44,246 bases of DNA, from the sequence record KY435490. One strand, written 5' to 3'. The translations under genes and the position numbers were made by a program. Origin of the DNA: Escherichia phage K1E. The notes beneath the pieces were generated by a model that was given only the letters and a program-made list of their open reading frames with translations, did no database searches and was not told the origin of the DNA. Of the stretch, positions 1-44,246 are shown piece after piece. The number at the start of each line of letters is the position of its first letter. The first letter of the stretch is position 1.

Positions 1-1651
1 ATACACGATTGTCATTTGCAATCTGCATCTTATAGCAGTATATATCAGTAGGGTGTCCATGACCTTTAAATGGGTCTTTATCTTTGTTGTCACCATAAGT
101 CATTGGGTTGAAATGGTTTTCACCACCAAAGATATAGTAAATGTAGCTGTCTTTAACTACAACAGAACCTACACCTACACTAGAGTTCACAATGTCACCT
201 TGATAGATTTGGTCTGTGATGTTAACCCATTCAATATCATCTGCATTCCAATTGTTTACATTCAATCGTGCATAGAAGGTACGAGGATAAGCTGCCTTGT
301 AACGATCATCTGGTGCACCTGCTTCCCATTCATTTTCTGCACGTTCTGAACCAAACATAATAAGGTCATCTCCTACTTTAGCAAAAGGTAAGGTAGTATG
401 ATGCACATTATGTGGAAATCTTAGTGACTCCCAAGTCTGACCTATATCTCTACTACGATGCAGAGAGCTTCCTAGTCGGTCGCCACGAGTACCACGAGTG
501 ATAAGGTATAATACACCGTCATAGTACTTGATGCATGGCTCTGCCGCATCTGGTTCATACTCAGCTGGTATCTGACGACGAACATAATTAGATGGGCTAT
601 TGAAAGCATCAGGGAAGTAGAAAAGACCAACTTCTCGGGGAGCTACATCACCTTGATGATAGCCCATAACAAAGCCATTGTTATCAATAGTAGCAAAGCT
701 ATGAACTTCAGTAACACGAGGTATCAGGCCAAGATCTGTCTTACGCCATGGAGACTTATGGAAGGAAGTACCCATGTGCCAATTCTTTCCAGCATTGTTC
801 AAATCAGAGGTCTGCTGATTGGCTGTAAGAACCGTGAAGTTGTCCTTATCTATAACTGTTGCAACTTTCATATCACCAGTTACACCTGTTACCGCAGAAT
901 TAGAGAAGCTAACAAAATCGCCCACGAATAATCCGTGATCAGGTACATGGATTGTTGCATAACGCTGATTTGCAGCCTTAGTGATACCACCAGTAAGATG
1001 CAGACTACGAGACATAGGGCGATCCCACAATGCACAATTGGTTAGTGCGTTCTTGGCTAAAGTACGTGTTTCAATCATGGCAAACAGACGGTTGCGACAT
1101 ACACCCATACTCATACAATGATAGTTCACTGTAGGGTAATCTGGATGCAGATCAGTTAACCACTCTGGTGTAGACCATGTTTGACCATCGTCACCAGACT
1201 TAATCCATGATACATGCAGACGACTAACACCATGACGGTCACTACCCATGTAAGGTGCATATATCACGTTCTCATATACAAACGCTTTGTCTTGAGGCCA
1301 AGCATTGTAATAAGGGTTATCCGTGATTTTATAGAGTTCACCATTGATAAAACCTTTACTCACATAGTAAAGAGGTTGACCTGCTAAACGTTCCCATACG
1401 AAGCGGGTATTATAGAATCGCTCCATATCAGGTAAAGATGATACTTTGTAAGTAGCACCAGCACCGTCAATTCTCTTACCTGAAGCCATCGCTGCATTTA
1501 CTGCATCTTGGTCGTTTGTCTTACCATCACCTTTGGCTCCAAAGTCTTTAAGCGATACAACCTCGGTGAGCTTGTCATCCAAGTTACGCCAGATTGCACC
1601 TGCTATTTTACTCTTGAATTTAACTAATGAAGAACCTAGTCTTTGAATCAT
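1..1651 (-). CDS. Endosialidase (endo-N-acetylneuraminidase) tailspike, N-terminal part; the CDS runs off the window start and continues at 43230..44014
   Basis: ATG at 1649-1651 preceded by GGAGG; translation MIQRLGSSLVKFKSKIAGAIWRNLDDKLTEVVSLKDFGAKGDGKTND... recognised from memory as K1E/K1F-type endosialidase; frame is continuous across the duplicated ends with ORF 43230..44204 (811 codons in total). Confidence 0.88.
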   Translation of the reverse strand, partial: MIQRLGSSLVKFKSKIAGAIWRNLDDKLTEVVSLKDFGAKGDGKTNDQDAVNAAMASGKRIDGAGATYKVSSLPDMERFYNTRFVWERLAGQPLYYVSKGFINGELYKITDNPYYNAWPQDKAFVYENVIYAPYMGSDRHGVSRLHVSWIKSGDDGQTWSTPEWLTDLHPDYPTVNYHCMSMGVCRNRLFAMIETRTLAKNALTNCALWDRPMSRSLHLTGGITKAANQRYATIHVPDHGLFVGDFVSFSNSAVTGVTGDMKVATVIDKDNFTVLTANQQTSDLNNAGKNWHMGTSFHKSPWRKTDLGLIPRVTEVHSFATIDNNGFVMGYHQGDVAPREVGLFYFPDAFNSPSNYVRRQIPAEYEPDAAEPCIKYYDGVLYLITRGTRGDRLGSSLHRSRDIGQTWESLRFPHNVHHTTLPFAKVGDDLIMFGSERAENEWEAGAPDDRYKAAYPRTFYARLNVNNWNADDIEWVNITDQIYQGDIVNSSVGVGSVVVKDSYIYYIFGGENHFNPMTYGDNKDKDPFKGHGHPTDIYCYKMQIANDNRV

Positions 1652-3820: not shown

Positions 3821-5717
3821 AATAAGTCCTTGAAATCCTTGCAGAAAGTGTATTTCTGCTTGCCGATTTACTCCTGTAATTCTGACCGTATACTCTTTGC
3901 TGCATAGCCACGGAAGTGTTGGTTACTCTTCGCTCAGTGCCATAATCTCCATAGAGCATTGCCCTACGGAGGTGAGGTGTGTTCATAGCATGGATGTAAT
4001 CGCGCATCTCCTGCGCTCTGAGGCGATTAATCCGTGTAACCTCGTCATAGTCTATCTGAGAAGTTAATTGCCGTATAGCGCCATACAGAGCGTCTAAGCG
4101 GTCATCGTGTCGTAGGCTGTTCTTCTCAATCGTGATGTTCGACATTTGATTGAAAAGGCTGTATGACATGCGTAGTTCAAGCGGATAGTGCTGTACCGAC
4201 TCAAAATCAGACTTGACCATCTCTGCGTTGAAGATGAGCCTGTGGGCCGCCATTAGTGGCTCTAGTGTTTCAATGATACGCAACTCTTTCTGTCCGGTGG
4301 CGTAATCTTCCTCCAGAACCACAGGCCACTCTCGTTCAAAGTATGGCTTTATAACGGCCTCAAACGCGCCATGACCAAAGTTCTTTTCAATGAATACCTC
4401 TTTAACACCTGCCTGCTTTGCGGCCTGCACAATGCGATTCAGGGACGATTCGCGGTATCCTCCCGGCACACCAAAGCACTGATACACATAAATGAATGTG
4501 CCGTGCAGGAAGACGATAGCCACACCCGTTTCATCCCCGTTCTTACCGCCACCCGCAGGGTCAATATACATAATCTTACGGGTAACAGCACCCCATTCAT
4601 AAGGACGGGCTACAGGTCTATACATAAAGTCTGTAGGCTTGTTACCATACTTAGGGGCATCGCCAATGATATTAATAGAATCATTACTCCACGTAGGCAT
4701 CACAGGGACTTCCTCTGTACCGAACGAAGTAAAGATTAGATTGTTTAGACGAAGTGGGTATCTGTCAGCATCCATCATGCGAGTGTTCAGCATAAACTGA
4801 AGCTGGAACTTAGCAGCACCTTGAGAGATTTCCTTCTCAATCAACACGTCATCATCGTACATTTCAGGTGCGCAAGGTGCACCACTGTTACCGTCTAACC
4901 CATAACCAGAGCGAAGTGCTGGGTTGTCTTTCATATCCTGCACAATCATAGGTGCAAGGAAGTCACCATAGCATTGCTCCTGCTCTACTGATGGATAACG
5001 TGCAGTCCAGATACGAACCGAGTAACCACGAGCAGGTAAGTTGTTGTAGATAGAGTTTACGTTCTGAGGAGTACCAAGGTAGATGATATCACCAAACTGG
5101 TTGATAGATTCAAACTCCTTGGTCAACTCCTCAAGCAAGGCACGGCCTGCTGCTGTACGAGCATTCTGCATCGATTCTACGTCATCTGCTAGAATAATAT
5201 CAGCACGAGCACCCTGCATACCTGCTTCGATAGAGTAACAGGATACAGAAGGTGACTTATCGCTGCCGCGTAACGTGTAGTGAATCTCAAATGCTTTGAC
5301 TGATGCACGGTCGCCAGCGTATATGTCCGGTAGCATAAACTCAAGGAAGTCTAGGCCACGGAAGATTTTCACTACCCAACCTGCGATTTCCTCTGCTCGC
5401 TTGGCGTTTTGGGATACTACCATGATACGCTTATGGGGTTCATGGATGATACGGAAAACAGTATAGATTGCTGATAGTGTAGTTTTAGCGATACCACGGG
5501 GCGCTTCGATGAGGCGATATTTATGTCCATAGAATAGAAACTTTAAAATATCGGCCTGCATACGAATCAGATGAGGGTTGCCTGCAATCAAGTTATGGAT
5601 AACTGTATCTGCAAAGAGAAGCAAACCTTCCGCCGTATACGGAAAAGTTTGCTGTAACTCCTGTAGCATCTCCCATCTGGCAAGAGCCTCCGCTTGTGAT
5701 TCTCTTGCCTTAGCCAT
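3819..5717 (-). CDS. Terminase large subunit (T7 gp19-like)
   Basis: 632 aa; ATG at 5717 after GGAGG, overlapping the upstream stop (TGATG); ATPase plus nuclease architecture. Confidence 0.93.
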   Translation of the reverse strand: MAKARESQAEALARWEMLQELQQTFPYTAEGLLLFADTVIHNLIAGNPHLIRMQADILKFLFYGHKYRLIEAPRGIAKTTLSAIYTVFRIIHEPHKRIMVVSQNAKRAEEIAGWVVKIFRGLDFLEFMLPDIYAGDRASVKAFEIHYTLRGSDKSPSVSCYSIEAGMQGARADIILADDVESMQNARTAAGRALLEELTKEFESINQFGDIIYLGTPQNVNSIYNNLPARGYSVRIWTARYPSVEQEQCYGDFLAPMIVQDMKDNPALRSGYGLDGNSGAPCAPEMYDDDVLIEKEISQGAAKFQLQFMLNTRMMDADRYPLRLNNLIFTSFGTEEVPVMPTWSNDSINIIGDAPKYGNKPTDFMYRPVARPYEWGAVTRKIMYIDPAGGGKNGDETGVAIVFLHGTFIYVYQCFGVPGGYRESSLNRIVQAAKQAGVKEVFIEKNFGHGAFEAVIKPYFEREWPVVLEEDYATGQKELRIIETLEPLMAAHRLIFNAEMVKSDFESVQHYPLELRMSYSLFNQMSNITIEKNSLRHDDRLDALYGAIRQLTSQIDYDEVTRINRLRAQEMRDYIHAMNTPHLRRAMLYGDYGTERRVTNTSVAMQQRVYGQNYRSKSASRNTLSARISRTY

Positions 5718-39627: not shown

Positions 39628-39690
39628 AGTAATCACCTTATATAGTGTAAGTAAATATCACATAGCCCACTCAGGTAGGCTATAGGCTAG

Positions 39691-39876: not shown

Positions 39877-39944
39877 AATCTCAACTCCTAGTAAGTGAAA
39901 GTTTAATCAGGCGCTACCGTAGCAACGCCTTGTTAAGTCTTCTC

Positions 39945-39962
39945 TTATAGTGTCAGCTAAAT
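39945..39962 (-). promoter_or_regulatory. Promoter-like sequence (ATTTAGCTGACACTATAA) upstream of early genes and the RNAP
   Basis: Close to the SP6 consensus but with A at +1. Confidence 0.35.
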
Positions 39963-40068: not shown

Positions 40069-40425
40069 TTATTCTTCCTCCTCTTCTTCTGAATCCTCAG
40101 CGGAATCGATGTACGCATCAATCATATCTTGAACACGTTCCCATAAATCAATGGTGAGTTGTTCATAAATACGGGCTTGTAGTACGACCGTCACATCCTT
40201 AGTGTCTGGCATTAAGCCAGAATCCTCGAAGAAGTGGTCGATGCCTTCACTGGCCATCACCGAGAAGATGTCAGCATAATAGATTGGTACAGCACTATCC
40301 GCCACCTCATGGATTGCATCATGTGCGTTATCGATACAATCAATAGCATCATCCCAGATACGTTCAACTAATGCAGCATGAGCGGTGTTGTAAACCTGAG
40401 AGTAAGTCATATTAGACATAGCCAT
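40069..40425 (-). CDS. ocr: Ocr-like DNA mimic (T7 gp0.3 homologue)
   Basis: MAMSNMTY...[44 protein letters not shown]...[15 protein letters not shown]... strongly resembles T7 Ocr; ATG at 40425 after GAGGA. Confidence 0.85.
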
Positions 40426-40846
40426 GTTATTAATCCTCATTTAGTTAGTTAGGTTACATTATAGGAGACTCAAGAGAATCTCCTAGGTTTAACCTATCCA
40501 GACTAAGAAGCGACTACCCATATTGTTAAAGAGCGTGGCTTGTGCTTGATAGGCTGGCTAGTGCCAGCCTTATCTTTCCTACTTAATTGCAGCCTTACAT
40601 GACTGTATCCAATGCTCCACGGCATCTGCCAAGTTGTCATACACCATAGCAGCTATTCCGTGATTCACTTCATACTCTTCGGAAGATACTTAGTTATGCT
40701 GATACTTACGCCGTTGATTGTAGTGGTAACGATTAAAGTTTCCATGATAATTTACCTTTCTGTTAGTAAGCCTATCAAGACACAAACCAGATTGTTAAAG
40801 GGCTAGGTTAGTGCCTTGATAGGCCAGCTATTAAGCTGGCTTATTG

Positions 40847-41059
40847 CTACAATTCTCCATCATTCAGTGCTTTAAGCCATCTGTAACCAGTGGCCTTACT
40901 CACATTAAGATACATGTTACAGAAGTCCACGAACTCATCATGTGTTGGCTGTTTGTCTGCCTTATAGTGTGCAAGCAGTACAGCCATCTTCTTGATAATC
41001 CGCTTCTCTTGTTTCTCACGTTCCATGCGTAATTCGTGAGCGATGTCGCAGTAGTTCAT
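40847..41059 (-). CDS. Hypothetical early protein (70 aa) with a C-terminal HTH-like segment
   Basis: ...VSKATGYRWLKALNDG. Confidence 0.45.
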   Translation of the reverse strand: MNYCDIAHELRMEREKQEKRIIKKMAVLLAHYKADKQPTHDEFVDFCNMYLNVSKATGYRWLKALNDGEL

Positions 41060-41342
41060 AGTTCACCTTAGTAAGTAGTTAGCCTACCAAGCACTAGCCC
41101 GATTGTTAAAGAGCTAGAGATTAGACTCGCGGGTGTGCTGCCATCCTTACGCTATTGCTATCCATAACTGGGCTATAAAGCTGGGCAATCCTTTTGCCAC
41201 CAGTTTAATTGTGGGAAAGCCTCCTTGTCCCTCACACCGATACTCCCGGCCTAATCTCTATTGTTAAAGAGCGTGATGTTTAAAGACGTCGCCGTCTTGA
41301 TGCTTAATGTAACCTTGTATGCCGTGGTTGTCAATAGTTAAT

Positions 41343-41567
41343 TTAGAGATTTGTCGTGATTACTTCATCGTAATCATAATCTTCACTACCTAGATACTCA
41401 GTAATGACTTGGTTGTCATACTCAGATACTAAGGTAACTCGGTGGTATTCAGTGTCGTAATCTAGTAGGAAGTGATGTACATCAACACCTACGCCAGCTT
41501 GTAGCATATCATCGTGGAAGCGAATAGCTTCGCTAGATGATTCAAAAAATACCTCATGTTGATACAT
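41343..41567 (-). CDS. Hypothetical early acidic protein (74 aa)
   Basis: Start overlaps the upstream stop (TAATG). Confidence 0.45.
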   Translation of the reverse strand: MYQHEVFFESSSEAIRFHDDMLQAGVGVDVHHFLLDYDTEYHRVTLVSEYDNQVITEYLGSEDYDYDEVITTNL

Positions 41568-41746
41568 TATTTACCCTCCCTCAATTCATCTATCATGTTA
41601 CGGTATTGATTAACTGTATCGGTCCAACCTTCGTTAAGGAATCGGTGATACAAGGCTAACTCATCCTCCGTAAGTAATTCGTTGTTACGAATCATGTAGC
41701 ACAACAGAGTGAAGAGAACGGACAGTTCACGGTTATTTAATGTCAT
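41567..41746 (-). CDS. Hypothetical early protein (59 aa)
   Basis: ATG at 41746 after AGAGGGTG. Confidence 0.4.
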   Translation of the reverse strand: MTLNNRELSVLFTLLCYMIRNNELLTEDELALYHRFLNEGWTDTVNQYRNMIDELREGK

Positions 41747-41960
41747 GATTAGCACCCTCTTTAAGAACTTTGATAATGCGGTTATATGCAGTACCTGTAA
41801 TAACTAACTTCTTACCCATCTTAAGATCAATATAGTGCAGATACTTAGGCGAATAATCATAGTTATCTGGTGTGCGCATCTTACATAAGTCATAACCTTT
41901 ATCGAGGAAGTGCTGAATCTCATCAACTGGCATGTTGTACGCTTTTACTTGTACTTTCAT
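41733..41960 (-). CDS. Hypothetical early protein (75 aa), first gene after the terminal region
   Basis: ATG at 41960 after GAGGGA. Confidence 0.45.
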   Translation of the reverse strand: MKVQVKAYNMPVDEIQHFLDKGYDLCKMRTPDNYDYSPKYLHYIDLKMGKKLVITGTAYNRIIKVLKEGANHDIK

Positions 41961-42183
41961 AGTTAATCCCTCATTCAATAAGTAATTAACCACGGCATAC
42001 ACAGGTTACACTAAGCAAATTGTTAAAGAGCATTGCGCTAACCTTGGTTTATCGTGGTAGGTTATGCTTGCGCCATCTTCCACTATCTAACATTGTTTAA
42101 CGGCTTCAGTAGCTAGGCCGGATAGTTAAGGACGCTCTCTATCATTCACCCTGAGTGTTTAATGTCGCTCCCGACTGATTGCT

Positions 42184-42212
42184 AATGTATACCTGTTAAC
42201 TGCCTATGTCAA
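42184..42212 (-). promoter_or_regulatory. Candidate host sigma70 early promoter (TTGACA-N17-TACATT)
   Basis: Perfect -35 hexamer and 17-nt spacer on the coding strand, about 220 nt upstream of the first early gene. Confidence 0.4.
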
Positions 42213-42259
42213 CACTAAATTTAACTAAGATAGATTATTTATGTGATACATGTCACAAC

Positions 42260-43095
42260 TACTAAGATAAACCTAGGTTGTCTAACATGTGAGACTAAGG
42301 AAAGCAATAGATACAGAGCTAGGATAGACTAGGTTGGCTAGGTTTCTGGTGTTCCTCCTACTGCATCTTATTACTATTACTTCTTATTAGCGGTCTACCG
42401 ACCGCGACCTAATTGCATCTTATAGCTTTAGCTATGCAATCACTAAGATCTGGCACTAAGACTAACTAAGGTACACTACTAAGTTGATACTAAGCTAAGC
42501 ACTAAGGCTTTAACTAAGGTAGCCCACTAAGGCTAACCTAAGCCATCCATCAAGGAATAACCTAAGGTACACAAGCGCGGTGAGTGTAGCGTAACGTAGT
42601 GGAGCGAAACGAACAGATAGCCCACCCACGCCCACCCTGTCAAACGCTCAGGAATGGCCCTAAAACGGCCTGTGTAAGCCCTAAGCGGTTGCACTAAGGC
42701 AATCACCTTGTCCAATACTAAGGCGTGCCCTAGCGCTTCCTAGGCGTTCTCCTTGTGCAGCCACTAAGAGCAGACCTCGGCAAGCCCTAGGCCACCCGTC
42801 GAAGACGGACCAGCCCAGCCCAATTCCCAAGCCAACCGCAGCGCGGCCCCATATGGGGGAAATCCGGCGAGGGCGAGGGCGAGACACCTCACACACGCCT
42901 ATATCAAAATTTTGACTTTGGTTACTTTGTGAGCGACCTCCGTATCTTCTCGTCCCTTATTTGGTCTTCACTAAGAATGTACCTCTTACGACCTAGGACA
43001 TCACTGAGTATACACAACAAAGATAACATACCTACACCCTCCTTTGATGGCACTAAGAGCAAACCTAGGTCTGCCCTTGTGTACACTAAGATATT
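42260..43095. repeat. Terminal-region repeat arrays of (C)ACTAAG(G)/CCTAAGG short motifs flanking a GC-rich island
   Basis: About 17 copies of ACTAAG in a noncoding stretch; analogous to T7 CCTAAAG arrays beside the terminal repeat. Confidence 0.5.
42280..42295. repeat. Palindrome-like GTCTAACATGTGAGAC (copy 7, one mismatch)
   Basis: In the terminal noncoding region; its flank is an inverted copy of the copy-5 flank. Confidence 0.45.
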
Positions 43096-43102
43096 AACCT
43101 GC

Positions 43103-43252: not shown

Positions 43253-44246
43253 ACATCTCCTCTAATTTATCAAGACGATGGCGAGTATAGGCAGCCTCTA
43301 GGATTAGAACTTCACTATATCTCACACCGTACCTACCTTCTTCGAAGGACACAATTCCATACTTAATGGCATCTAACCCTTCATCTTCAAAAGCAGCTAC
43401 AATATCCTGAGCCAAGACACCGAAGTGTATGCTATCAAGGTTCCTCTCTGCTTCACTATTCAAACCATACTGTTTAAAACCAACCCTGCTCCAAGCCTTT
43501 AACACCTTGGTATTAATACTAGAGATACCGTACTTGTGGTCAGCATCTGAAGTTGTAACAGGGTCACTGCCTAGGTAGATGGTAGTGAATCGGTTACTAG
43601 GCCCCCCAGCAGCAAACTGGTTATCTACAGCAGGCATGATTGGTGCACCTTGGAATAGGTGCTCATTTCCGTTATAAGTGATACGCTTAGCCTTACTTGA
43701 ATTAGAGCCGTGCAAAGTTATCTGTGCACCTGAAGAGGACGAAGTCTTTTCTCCACCACAAATAATCAAACGTTGACCAGTTGGGTTGTCCTTTGGAACA
43801 GACTTACCAATAAAGCCATATTCACCTTCCATCTGCACTTCAGATCGTATATTGGAACTTGTGCTTGCTTTAAGTGTTAAGTGTCCAACTTTAGTATCCT
43901 CTGTAACAATGTTATCTGAGAAATACAAAGGTGCAGAGATATTTCGTATTCCATCAGTACCCATGAAAGTAGGTATAGCTTGACCCGGAGTTGCACCATA
44001 TGTAAACTTACGAGATACACGATTGTCATTTGCAATCTGCATCTTATAGCAGTATATATCAGTAGGGTGTCCATGACCTTTAAATGGGTCTTTATCTTTG
44101 TTGTCACCATAAGTCATTGGGTTGAAATGGTTTTCACCACCAAAGATATAGTAAATGTAGCTGTCTTTAACTACAACAGAACCTACACCTACACTAGAGT
44201 TCACAATGTCACCTTGATAGATTTGGTCTGTGATGTTAACCCATTC
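43230..44246 (-). CDS. Endosialidase tailspike, C-terminal part (same gene as 1..1651; 44015..44246 duplicates 1..232)
   Basis: Track ORF 43230..44204 is open up to the window end; frame matches the N-terminal segment after removing the 232-bp duplication. Confidence 0.88.
   Translation of the reverse strand, partial: EWVNITDQIYQGDIVNSSVGVGSVVVKDSYIYYIFGGENHFNPMTYGDNKDKDPFKGHGHPTDIYCYKMQIANDNRVSRKFTYGATPGQAIPTFMGTDGIRNISAPLYFSDNIVTEDTKVGHLTLKASTSSNIRSEVQMEGEYGFIGKSVPKDNPTGQRLIICGGEKTSSSSGAQITLHGSNSSKAKRITYNGNEHLFQGAPIMPAVDNQFAAGGPSNRFTTIYLGSDPVTTSDADHKYGISSINTKVLKAWSRVGFKQYGLNSEAERNLDSIHFGVLAQDIVAAFEDEGLDAIKYGIVSFEEGRYGVRYSEVLILEAAYTRHRLDKLEEMYATNKIS

Follow-up and report, generated by a model that had tools for sequence, protein, structure and literature searches.

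The early region of the phage genome analysed here carries a 13-nucleotide sequence that recurs in the gaps between genes, which raises the question of what such a repeat does in the early transcript. The window (the whole stretch of DNA analysed, 44,246 nucleotides, record KY435490) is the reverse complement of a Vectrevirus genome of the K1E/K1-5 group, relatives of SP6, and its early genes therefore lie on the minus strand. A sequence-only reading had described five copies of one conserved 13-mer, and a scan of the window found four of them exact, as ATTGTTAAAGAGC on the plus strand at 40522, 41102, 41260 and 42019. The copy at 40791, also on the plus strand, is ATTGTTAAAGGGC, with one mismatch against the other four; the intergenic placement was right for all five copies, the identity for four. 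When up to two mismatches were allowed, just one extra match appeared, at 43898 on the opposite strand and within a tail-spike ORF, and it looks like a chance occurrence. The expected number of exact 13-mers in 2 x 44 kb is about 0.001, and six hits were reached in none of 100 dinucleotide shuffles (mean 1.47). All five copies lie between ORFs of the minus (gene) strand, the strand of all the early ORFs; on this strand the 13-mer reads GCTCTTTAACAAT, and its form in the minus-strand transcript is GCUCUUUAACAAU. The copies, named boxA for the reason given below, are as follows, in the order of transcription:

42019..42031, minus strand: boxA-5, exact GCTCTTTAACAAT, first in transcription order, in the early leader
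41260..41272, minus strand: boxA-4, exact; the internal promoter's -10 hexamer lies 33 nt upstream of it
41102..41114, minus strand: boxA-3, exact, 42 nt upstream of a 70-aa ORF (41059-40847)
40791..40803, minus strand: boxA-2, variant GCCCTTTAACAAT, which breaks the consensus GYTCTTTAANA
40522..40534, minus strand: boxA-1, exact, the last copy, 96 nt upstream of ocr (ATG 40425)

The four exact copies are identical over all 13 nt to the boxA of the E. coli rrn leader (L002:2605-2617), which is located 128 nt before 16S; a 51-nt query from that leader is present in 5426 of 5426 E. coli genomes, in a median of 7 places per genome. Judged by its sequence, the 13-mer as read on the plus strand is boxA, the rRNA antitermination signal of E. 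coli, in reverse complement. In rrn operons, boxA is the loading site of NusB/NusE(S10) for processive antitermination, and the same 13-mer stands there in the transcribed leader, downstream of a second promoter-like sequence which we take to be P2. The functional consensus has been given as GYTCTTTAANA (E. coli rrn: GCUCUUUAACAA) (PMC5725501). Four of the five copies fit it, and 40791-40803 fails owing to a C at position 3 (T3 to C on the gene strand). The ORF downstream of this variant is frameshifted in the window, and the homologous cassettes of K1E and ACG-C91 have a canonical boxA. The distances from boxA to the start codon are 58, 42, 45 and 96 nt, the first being that from boxA-5 to the first early ORF (ATG 41960). 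In partition-function folds the 13-mer is mostly predicted to be single-stranded, with a mean P(unpaired) of 0.42-0.96 (0.68-0.85 for boxA-5).

The position of the copies relative to the promoters of the early region is of equal interest. Three of these are needed here:

42184..42212, minus strand: predicted sigma-70-like early promoter TTGACA-17-TACATT, 10/12 consensus positions, about 150 nt upstream of boxA-5
41306..41334, minus strand: predicted internal sigma-70-like promoter TTGACA-17-TACATT, from the promoter scan
39942..39962, minus strand: first SP6-type phage-polymerase promoter, one of 8 phage promoters, all on the minus strand

Sigma-70-like promoters precede the five boxA copies, and the first phage-polymerase promoter follows all of them; by analogy with T7-group biology, the boxA zone would be transcribed by the host RNA polymerase and by that enzyme only. 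Transcripts from the internal promoter would, judging from the position of its hexamers, start some 25-30 nt before boxA-4. Both hexamers are kept in K1E, K1-5, SP6, F5M1D, Kpp-61, PM85, phD2B and PP1.

Relatives carry the same signal. Two to five same-strand copies were found upstream of the RNAP gene in 21 of 21 Vectrevirus, Zindervirus and Klebsiella-phage loci (those that include the early region), and the motif is conserved in SP6, K1-5 and K1E, with 3-4 copies each. PP1, phD2B and PM85 have 3 copies each, and Era103, Nifs112, PP99, phi-A318 and Tola 1 each; the form in Aeromonas phage Tola and Erwinia phage Era103 is GTTCTTTAACAAT. The sequence flanking boxA holds 0.7 bits or less per position, the profile of boxA itself being partly circular because the copies were gathered by similarity to boxA. 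The flanks fall into 23 upstream and 14 downstream types, joined combinatorially: one upstream type occurs with 4 downstream types, and one downstream type with 8 upstream types. Moreover, relatives align to the early region in 3-7 pieces with 51-91% coverage, and the window has an extra boxA-flanked module of 145 nt that is absent from K1E. BoxA is the junction at which early modules have been shuffled between phages. The identity, strand, position and conservation of boxA, like this shuffling and the complementarity and covariation of the helices described next, are direct observations.

Directly after boxA lies the 5' arm of a long-range helix of 20-30 bp, whose 3' arm stands just before the next boxA. 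The arms found in the window are:

41988..42017, minus strand: helix 1, 5' arm, 1 nt after boxA-5; 29 bp with 41301-41329
41301..41329, minus strand: helix 1, 3' arm, after the three-gene cluster 41960-41343
41249..41259, minus strand: helix 2, 5' arm, directly after boxA-4; 10-11 bp with 41116-41126
41116..41126, minus strand: helix 2, 3' arm, ending 1 nt before boxA-3
41076..41100, minus strand: helix 3, 5' arm, 1 nt after boxA-3; 23 bp with 40805-40830
40805..40830, minus strand: helix 3, 3' arm, ending 1 nt before boxA-2
40760..40789, minus strand: helix 4, 5' arm, 1 nt after boxA-2; 26 bp with 40536-40567
40536..40567, minus strand: helix 4, 3' arm, ending 1 nt before boxA-1 and overlapping the hairpin 40552-40569

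Helix 1 (E -48.1 kcal/mol) has a pair probability of 0.94 when the whole array is folded, shows covariation in alignment A2 and across genera, and overlaps the internal promoter with its 3' arm. Helix 2, with a pair probability of 0.97-0.99, encloses the 145-nt module, which is without an ORF. Helix 3 (E -31.2) shows covariation in alignment A3, and its 3' arm has an alternative local pairing with 40770-40788; helix 4 (E -34.8) holds an exact 11-mer, CTTGATAGGCT / AGCCTATCAAG, in its arms. For helices 3 and 4 the local alternative is about equally stable, and the equilibrium fold favours a local hairpin of the arms around boxA-2 over the two bracket helices, so that the partner of the CCUAUCAAGG arm family is ambiguous in the window. 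The arm after boxA-1 has no long-range partner in the window (best -27 kcal/mol, vs a mean of -45.5 for true brackets).

Between arms, the duplex energy averaged -45.5 kcal/mol over 39 pairs of consecutive boxA copies vs -18.3 for shuffled sequences, while the local U(i)/D(i) alternative gave -22.4 vs -19.5. Of alignment A2, 95.3% is paired, and 6 pairs are changed on both sides; for alignment A3 the values are 97.9% and 4. These double changes are few and partly shared by descent; neither the percentage paired nor the covariation score was matched in any of 500 shuffles, and slid controls were 22-45% paired. For phD2B and PM85, left out of the covariation count since their MAFFT alignment (A4) was out of structural register, duplex predictions were compared. 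In the predictions between genera, 25-30 bp are retained in nine sequence versions, and among the seven versions with the GUAUGCCG core the boxA-proximal 16 nt agree at just 3-9 of 16 positions between genera. In 30 of 36 cases, furthermore, the sense strand is more stable than its antisense counterpart. The properties of a leader-trailer-type helix, i.e. more than 17 bp, arms flanking the enclosed gene, a start next to boxA and covariation, were all found.

In addition to the bracket helices, local structures surround the motif. The hairpins and inverted motifs pointed out in the earlier reading are present: GGCTGGCTAGTGCCAGCC at 40552-40569, AAGACGTCGCCGTCTT at 41283-41298, and CTTGATAGG / CCTATCAAG at 40545-40553, 40770-40778 and 40815-40823; a third hairpin, GCCAGCTATTAAGCTGGC, lies at 40823-40840. 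Hairpins precede three of the five boxA copies by 10-17 nt, with loops that vary among copies. Two local structures call for individual mention:

41283..41298, minus strand: hairpin AAGACG-GCGA-CGUCUU, closed by a GNRA tetraloop and located 10 nt before boxA-4
40441..40506, minus strand: long imperfect local hairpin, fold z-score -5.1, between boxA-1 and the ribosome-binding site of ocr

The former occupies the place that boxB has in rrn leaders. BoxA alone has been found to suffice, the boxB hairpin on its 5' side and boxC on its 3' side being accessory features (PMC8632103). A boxC UGUGUGGG is absent from the window, the 5' arms holding just UGUGU/GUGU stretches. Placement of boxA in the loop of a local hairpin was considered as a general structure but does not hold as a rule, local pairing being no better on average than in shuffles; folding models suggest it as possible for boxA-2 and boxA-5. 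Rfam, searched over 40300-42400, returned sok alone, with 16.6 bits vs a gathering score of 59, and this sub-threshold hit was discarded.

The closest known arrangement is that of the E. coli rrn operons. There, the 16S leader-trailer helix adjoins boxA without a gap on its 3' side (E -56.6 vs -24.3); leader-trailer helices of 25-40 bp are cut by RNase III, and tethering of boxA to NusB has been proposed to promote their formation (PMC10250234). The window shares with rrn the identical 13-nt boxA followed by the 5' strand of a long-range helix, the partner strand after the enclosed gene, and the repetition of boxA before each enclosed unit (leader and spacer copies in rrn). Each gene module, flanked by its arms, is thus bracketed as 16S rRNA is by the leader-trailer helix. 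Neither system needs a phage N-like protein, and none was found among the early ORFs of the window, where Pfam hits Ocr alone and the PHROG families are of unknown function. The two differ in what is enclosed, rRNAs in the one and up to five units with small protein-coding modules of 0.15-0.75 kb in the other, in the lack of a clear boxC in the window, whose 5' arms have GU-rich stretches only, and in the overlap of the window's helix 1 with a sigma-70-like promoter.

T7 has one exact copy of the 13-mer, located at nt 813 with A3 (750) on one side and gene 0.3 (925) on the other, and resembles the window in that the motif stands after host promoters and before the ocr/0.3 gene. The long local hairpin between the last boxA and ocr also has its like in the T7 leader, its position presumably matching that of R0.3, an RNase III site that T7 has after its boxA and before gene 0.3. 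The RNase III sites of T7 are local hairpins, whereas most helices of the window bracket whole gene modules, and T7 has one copy instead of the five of the window (2-5 in relatives). PMC3709561, citing Savalia et al. 2010, describes the T7 boxA as a functional antitermination element with a genetic phenotype, and boxA-antiterminated host transcription as what Gp2 must stop. From this described role, together with the identity to rrn boxA, the 13-mer is therefore taken not to be a promoter, nor to be an RNase III site in its own right.

In lambda, the boxA of nutL and nutR confers processive antitermination on the host RNA polymerase, and is a shorter, weaker variant (CGCUCUUA). As in lambda, an early phage transcript of the window carries a NusB/NusE site of the boxA type, and by analogy this site may have a like function. 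However, in lambda boxA lies 5' of boxB and N is needed, whereas the window has the full rrn boxA, any hairpin being 5' of it and variable in its loop. A nut site of the lambda type was considered and rejected, since no conserved hairpin directly follows boxA, the 5' arm of the long-range helix being found there instead.

BoxA is also known before non-ribosomal genes. In the 5' UTR of suhB it recruits Nus factors and represses translation, and many gamma-proteobacteria have a conserved boxA no more than 50 nt from a start codon (PMC5725501); boxA is also reported from the leaders of CRISPR arrays (PMC7665894). These consensus elements resemble those of the window but are single copies for which no bracketing helices are described, and that of suhB represses. 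Finally, short repeated regulatory cassettes at which gene modules swap recall the PeSLs of T4-type phages, units of promoter plus stem-loop that form mobile cassettes between early genes and are exchanged among related phages. We know of no relation between PeSLs and boxA or Nus factors, and the repeated core in the window is, unlike theirs, a host antitermination signal.

Several other functions for the 13-mer have to be weighed against antitermination. That it forms part of a promoter for the host or the phage RNA polymerase is extremely unlikely: the copies do occupy spacers between early genes and AACAAT resembles a weak -10 hexamer, but sigma-70, sigma-54 and phage promoter fits, tried by eye and by scan, all failed. 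The earlier reading, too, could not fit a convincing sigma70 promoter. No hit of the promoter scan covers the motif and no conserved -35-like hexamer stands at 16-18 nt within the poorly conserved flanks; SP6-type phage promoters have a different sequence and lie in 8 other places, and the rrn 13-mer belongs to the transcribed leader. The same reading had put forward RNase III processing, by analogy with T7, and RNase III does cut T7 early RNA between genes. The inverted motifs around boxA-2 can make an 18-bp local stem, and the spacers of boxA-1 and boxA-2 fold better than shuffles (z -5.1 and -4.8). It is nevertheless very unlikely that the 13-mer itself is the signal for RNase III or another RNase in the early polycistronic RNA, and this part of the proposal is not supported: RNase III needs double-stranded RNA, and the mostly unpaired motif equals, base for base, a known single-strand protein-binding site of the host. 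Mean local pairing is no better than that of shuffles, and the motif stays invariant while the surrounding stems change wholly, the opposite of a structure-defined site.

The combinatorial flanks, the piecewise alignment of relatives and the extra 145-nt module would also suit repeats whose main use is as short stretches of homology linking early gene cassettes that are shuffled by recombination, with any RNA function secondary. A pure linker, however, need not equal the host rrn boxA base for base, nor be confined to one strand and to untranslated RNA downstream of host promoters; moreover, where a phage has just one copy (T7, Era103, Tola, phi-A318), both the sequence and its leader position are kept, and the T7 copy has a genetic antitermination phenotype (PMC3709561). 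We consider linkage as the main role quite improbable; the shuffling more plausibly follows from the repetition of an element that has a function. A negative or autoregulatory role, in which Nus complexes 42-96 nt upstream would repress translation or the early RNA would titrate NusB/NusE/SuhB from rrn, is likewise quite improbable. It has in its favour the precedent of suhB and of boxA near gamma-proteobacterial starts, the comparable distances measured here and up to five copies per transcript from strong promoters; against it, T7 genetics (PMC3709561) favour an antitermination that Gp2 must stop, the geometry of the leader-trailer type is without counterpart at suhB, and to repress all early genes when they are quickly needed seems counterproductive.

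The second proposal of the earlier reading, a repeated regulatory signal of the early polycistronic transcript, was upheld by the match to rrn boxA and its conservation across relatives, and can be made more specific. The boxA array with its bracket helices quite probably provides rrn-type antitermination of the early operon, and the host RNA polymerase most likely transcribes these early genes, to judge from their signals, in the way of rRNA operons. Nus binding, antitermination, RNase III cleavage and reloading are the steps we infer. As the host polymerase moved through the early region, each boxA would emerge within an untranslated spacer and bind the NusB-NusE(S10) heterodimer, which, with NusA, NusG and SuhB, would turn the polymerase into an antitermination complex of the rrn type. 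Fast and Rho-resistant, this complex could pass through the long spacers, which are untranslated and rich in hairpins, as far as the phage RNA polymerase gene (38679-36052). BoxA would be reiterated because some copies follow internal promoters and because each is the foot of a long-range helix, the sequence after one boxA pairing with that before the next. The polymerase would keep hold of the tethered 5' arm up to the emergence of the 3' arm; RNase III would then cut the duplex of 20-30 bp so formed, releasing module-sized mRNAs whose ends are paired, and the complex would be reloaded by the next boxA.

The roughly two turns of double-stranded RNA that an RNase III site calls for are offered by the flanking helices (23-29 bp) only, not by the 13-mer. 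On their predicted structure, the bracket helices are plausible RNase III substrates, comparable to rRNA leader-trailer helices and to the R-sites of T7, which partly rescues the idea of processing: cleavage next to the motif, as the models have it, is a reasonable idea. More tentatively, the early operon of SP6/K1E-like phages could be a string of miniature rRNA-style units, with Nus loading, tethered co-transcriptional looping, RNase III release, reloading and possibly a drain on Nus factors. The antitermination complex would then act as an RNA chaperone on mRNA, and the multi-copy boxA RNA might also draw Nus factors away from the host rrn operons.

No boxA feature is annotated in the GenBank records of SP6, K1-5 and K1E, and a full-text search for boxA with SP6, K1-5 or Autographiviridae returned nothing relevant, Dobbins 2004 (PMC374404), Scholl 2004 and Savalia 2010 (PMC2941873) lying outside its scope. 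In the literature searched, arrays of 2-5 boxA copies in several Molineuxvirinae genera appear undescribed, as does the bracketing by helices of the gene modules between consecutive copies. The kind of element is known; its arrangement in the array, which mimics rrn, is new.

An anonymous repeat is hereby replaced by a precise, testable function, the recruitment of host Nus factors on phage early RNA. In rRNA operons, whether boxA-tethered antitermination complexes chaperone leader-trailer pairing is an open question (PMC10250234). If the rrn-like layout works as proposed, these small phages would offer a compact natural system in which to address it, with helices that span modules of just 0.15-0.75 kb and vary naturally. 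Furthermore, the K1-capsule phages of this group are used in engineering and therapy, and their boxA copies are natural boundaries of early-gene cassettes and probably set the speed at which the host polymerase reaches the phage RNA polymerase gene.

The repeated 13-mer of the early region is, by its sequence, the boxA antitermination signal of the E. coli rRNA (rrn) operons, GCUCUUUAACAAU. In a motif search of the window, ATTGTTAAAGAGC was found exactly at 40522, 41102, 41260 and 42019 on the plus strand, together with a one-mismatch form on the same strand, ATTGTTAAAGGGC, at 40791, and none of 100 dinucleotide-preserving shuffles reached the observed motif count. The sequence-only reading had described five copies of a conserved 13-mer: the repeat is real at all five sites, the 40791 copy being a point variant and not identical, and the hairpins and CTTGATAGG / CCTATCAAG motifs placed near the copies were also found. 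Since the early genes, ocr included, lie on the minus strand, as does the RNA polymerase gene, the window shows the conventional map reverse-complemented, and the RNA carries the motif as GCTCTTTAACAAT; in transcription order, the copies are named boxA-5 (42019), boxA-4 (41260), boxA-3 (41102), boxA-2 (40791) and boxA-1 (40522).

NusB-NusE binds to boxA, on which the rrn antitermination complex chiefly depends (PMC8632103; PMC10250234). A 51-nt rrn leader sequence was found at 100% identity in 5426 of 5426 complete E. coli genomes, at a median of seven places per genome, and at the one rrn place inspected (L002:2605-2617) the 13-mer precedes the annotated 16S rRNA by 128 nt; a variant, GCTCTTTAAAAAT, occurs in the E. 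coli 16S-23S spacer. The functional consensus GYTCTTTAANA, derived by Baniulyte et al. (PMC5725501), is matched by four of the five window copies, boxA-2 deviating by a C at position 3.

The region is 91-99% identical to Vectrevirus phages (K1E, K1-5 and many E. coli K1 phages). A scan of the window gave eight SP6-type phage promoters, all on the minus strand, and a promoter scan two sigma-70-like promoters:

42212-42184, minus strand, sigma-70-like promoter TTGACA-17-TACATT
41334-41306, minus strand, internal sigma-70-like promoter TTGACA-17-TACATT
39962-39942, minus strand, first SP6-type phage promoter, downstream of all five motif copies
38679-36052, minus strand, SP6-type single-subunit RNA polymerase gene

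Given these positions, the array can be transcribed by the host RNA polymerase only. Upstream of boxA-5, within 42032-42104 (minus strand), a degenerate copy of the 3'-arm/promoter element, CCACGATAAACCAAGGTTAGCGCAA, able to pair locally with the arm after boxA-5, and, still further upstream, a boxA-like GCCGTTAAACAAT with three mismatches (42104-42092, minus strand) may together be the remnant of an older cassette. Window ~42200-43100 holds dense short ACTAAG / CTAAGG-type repeats and a G+C-rich stretch and lacks any convincing ORF; the genome end and terminal repeat probably lie here, in which case the window is a permuted whole genome.

The spacers are 100-250 nt of untranslated, structured RNA, and the sequence starting 0-3 nt after one boxA is complementary to that ending 0-30 nt before the next. 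For 39 pairs of neighbouring boxA copies, the duplexes were predicted at -45.5 kcal/mol on average, against -18.3 for shuffled partners, while the two flanks of the same boxA gave -22.4 against -19.5 kcal/mol. In the window, the predicted gene-bracketing helices are:

42017-41988 with 41329-41301, minus strand, helix 1, 29 bp
41259-41249 with 41126-41116, minus strand, helix 2, predicted pairing
41100-41076 with 40830-40805, minus strand, helix 3, 23 bp
40789-40760 with 40567-40536, minus strand, helix 4, 26 bp

The arm pairing is supported by covariation, in events that are few and partly inherited: the alignments of helix 1 and helix 3 were 95.3% and 97.9% paired, with six and four pairs, respectively, changed on both sides; not one of 500 column shuffles attained the observed pairing or covariation score, and slid controls showed 22-45% pairing. 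Duplex prediction kept 25-30 bp of the first helix in nine sequence versions across genera, and for the seven versions with the GUAUGCCG core, genera have only 3-9 positions in common over the 16 nt next to boxA. Of 36 unique cases, 30 have a better fold on the sense than on the antisense strand, the outcome to be expected if the constraint acts on RNA and G-U pairs are used. When the whole array is folded at equilibrium, the two arms flanking boxA-2 pair together and not across their genes; in three further loci (L006, L008 and L015) the bracket pairing is the sole one possible. A long-range partner sought for the arm after the last boxA was not found, and a long local hairpin (fold z -5.1) lies between this boxA and ocr.

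The E. coli rrn operon offers a close parallel. Its 16S leader-trailer helix (2618-2660 with 4292-4334; E -56.6, shuffles -24.3) likewise has a 5' strand beginning at the first nucleotide after boxA, so that the phage spacers reproduce the rrn layout in miniature: a hairpin, boxA and a 5' arm pairing beyond the enclosed gene or genes. Such leader-trailer helices, of 25-40 bp, are cleaved by RNase III (PMC10250234). In every case, a conserved sigma-70-like promoter shares sequence with the 3' arm of the first helix, and transcripts from the internal promoter would thus lack that arm and carry boxA ~25-30 nt from their 5' end, much like an rrn P2 leader.

The single exact boxA of T7 (nt 813) falls after promoter A3 (750) and before gene 0.3 (925). 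The last boxA of the window with the long hairpin before ocr can be likened to this boxA and the R0.3 site that follows it. Conservation in related phages, K1E included, bears out the reading of the 13-mer as a conserved element: two to five same-strand copies stand upstream of the RNA polymerase gene in 21 of 21 Vectrevirus, Zindervirus and related Klebsiella-phage loci in which the early region is present. Such counts for relatives may be too low, as substitution-only searches miss insertion copies like the fourth boxA of K1E (L001, 2237-2250), GCTCTTTTAACAAT, which carries a one-base insertion in front of ocr. Three copies each were found in other Molineuxvirinae genera (Axomammavirus PP1, Tuodvirus phD2B, Acadevirus PM85) and one leader boxA in Era103, Nifs112, PP99, Vibrio phage phi-A318, Aeromonas phage Tola and T7. 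In Tola (L022, 1469-1481) and Era103 (L152, 1493-1505) this leader copy reads GTTCTTTAACAAT, with T for the consensus Y, and may reflect the rrn boxA of the host genus. Among viral contigs, CGCTCTTTAACAAT was found in at least 120, at least four of them T7-sized with one copy ~0.75 kb from the contig start. The upstream flanks of the invariant 13-mer hold at most 0.7 bits per position and a short xUGG is the sole conserved feature downstream, in a profile that is partly circular, the copies having been gathered by similarity to boxA. Arrays also occur in unrelated viral contigs (IMG/VR): L047 (2972-3925), of 99 kb and with distant similarity to Alishewanella myophages, bears a promoter-boxA unit followed 235 nt later by a second boxA, with complementary flanks (-26.8 kcal/mol); L099 has three ~60-nt repeats, each ending in boxA; and in L050 the copies lie directly upstream of apparent tRNA genes.

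A comparison of spacers distinguished 23 upstream and 14 downstream flank types, combined variously at boxA, one upstream type having four downstream partners and one downstream type eight upstream partners. BoxA thus acts as a junction for the exchange, insertion and deletion of early modules, which explains the patchy alignment of relatives. The five copies of this phage reflect an extra boxA-flanked module relative to K1E:

41115-41259, minus strand, 145-nt module between boxA-4 and boxA-3

This module, closed by a 10-11 bp inverted repeat abutting both boxA copies, is at least 99% identical in eight phage records, and K1E and K1-5 lack it. Its gene strand holds no ORF of at least 30 aa; it has no Rfam match and a fold not clearly better than that of shuffled sequence, and may represent a small RNA or the remains of a gene. 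The module between boxA-2 and boxA-1 may be decaying, since its ORF (40579-40745, minus strand), intact with 55 aa at the corresponding position in phage ACG-C91 (L003:1683-1966), is frameshifted into 26-aa and 29-aa pieces and the boxA in front of it is the sole variant copy in the window (T3 to C).

BoxA-antiterminated host transcription in T7 is implied by a passage of PMC3709561 citing Savalia et al.; boxA on T7 early RNA is already known, and so, therefore, is this kind of element. Multiple copies in the SP6/K1-5 group have no mention in the database records and papers searched, and may be noted in the SP6 and K1-5 genome papers. Neither the covarying helix that brackets the genes after a boxA nor the use of boxA as a module junction appears to have been described.

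Between boxA-1 and the phage polymerase gene, an intrinsic-terminator-like hairpin, TATAGCCTACCTGAGTGGGCTATG followed by TGATATTTAC (39661-39684, minus strand, between ORFs of 61 and 297 aa), is a possible target of antitermination. As unlikely alternatives, the 13-mer might itself be an RNase III site, a promoter or purely a recombination linker, or boxA might here be repressive or titrating. With regard to the helices, it is probable that they are real RNA structures; that RNase III cuts them into module-sized mRNAs is an even chance, and would account for the need of a new boxA after each helix; that the Nus complex chaperones them, by analogy with the rrn literature, is rather doubtful. 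The most likely explanation, held with good confidence, is antitermination: each boxA would bring NusB-NusE and other Nus factors to the host polymerase, making it Rho-resistant and fast across the spacers, and would thereby ensure that ocr and the phage polymerase gene are expressed.
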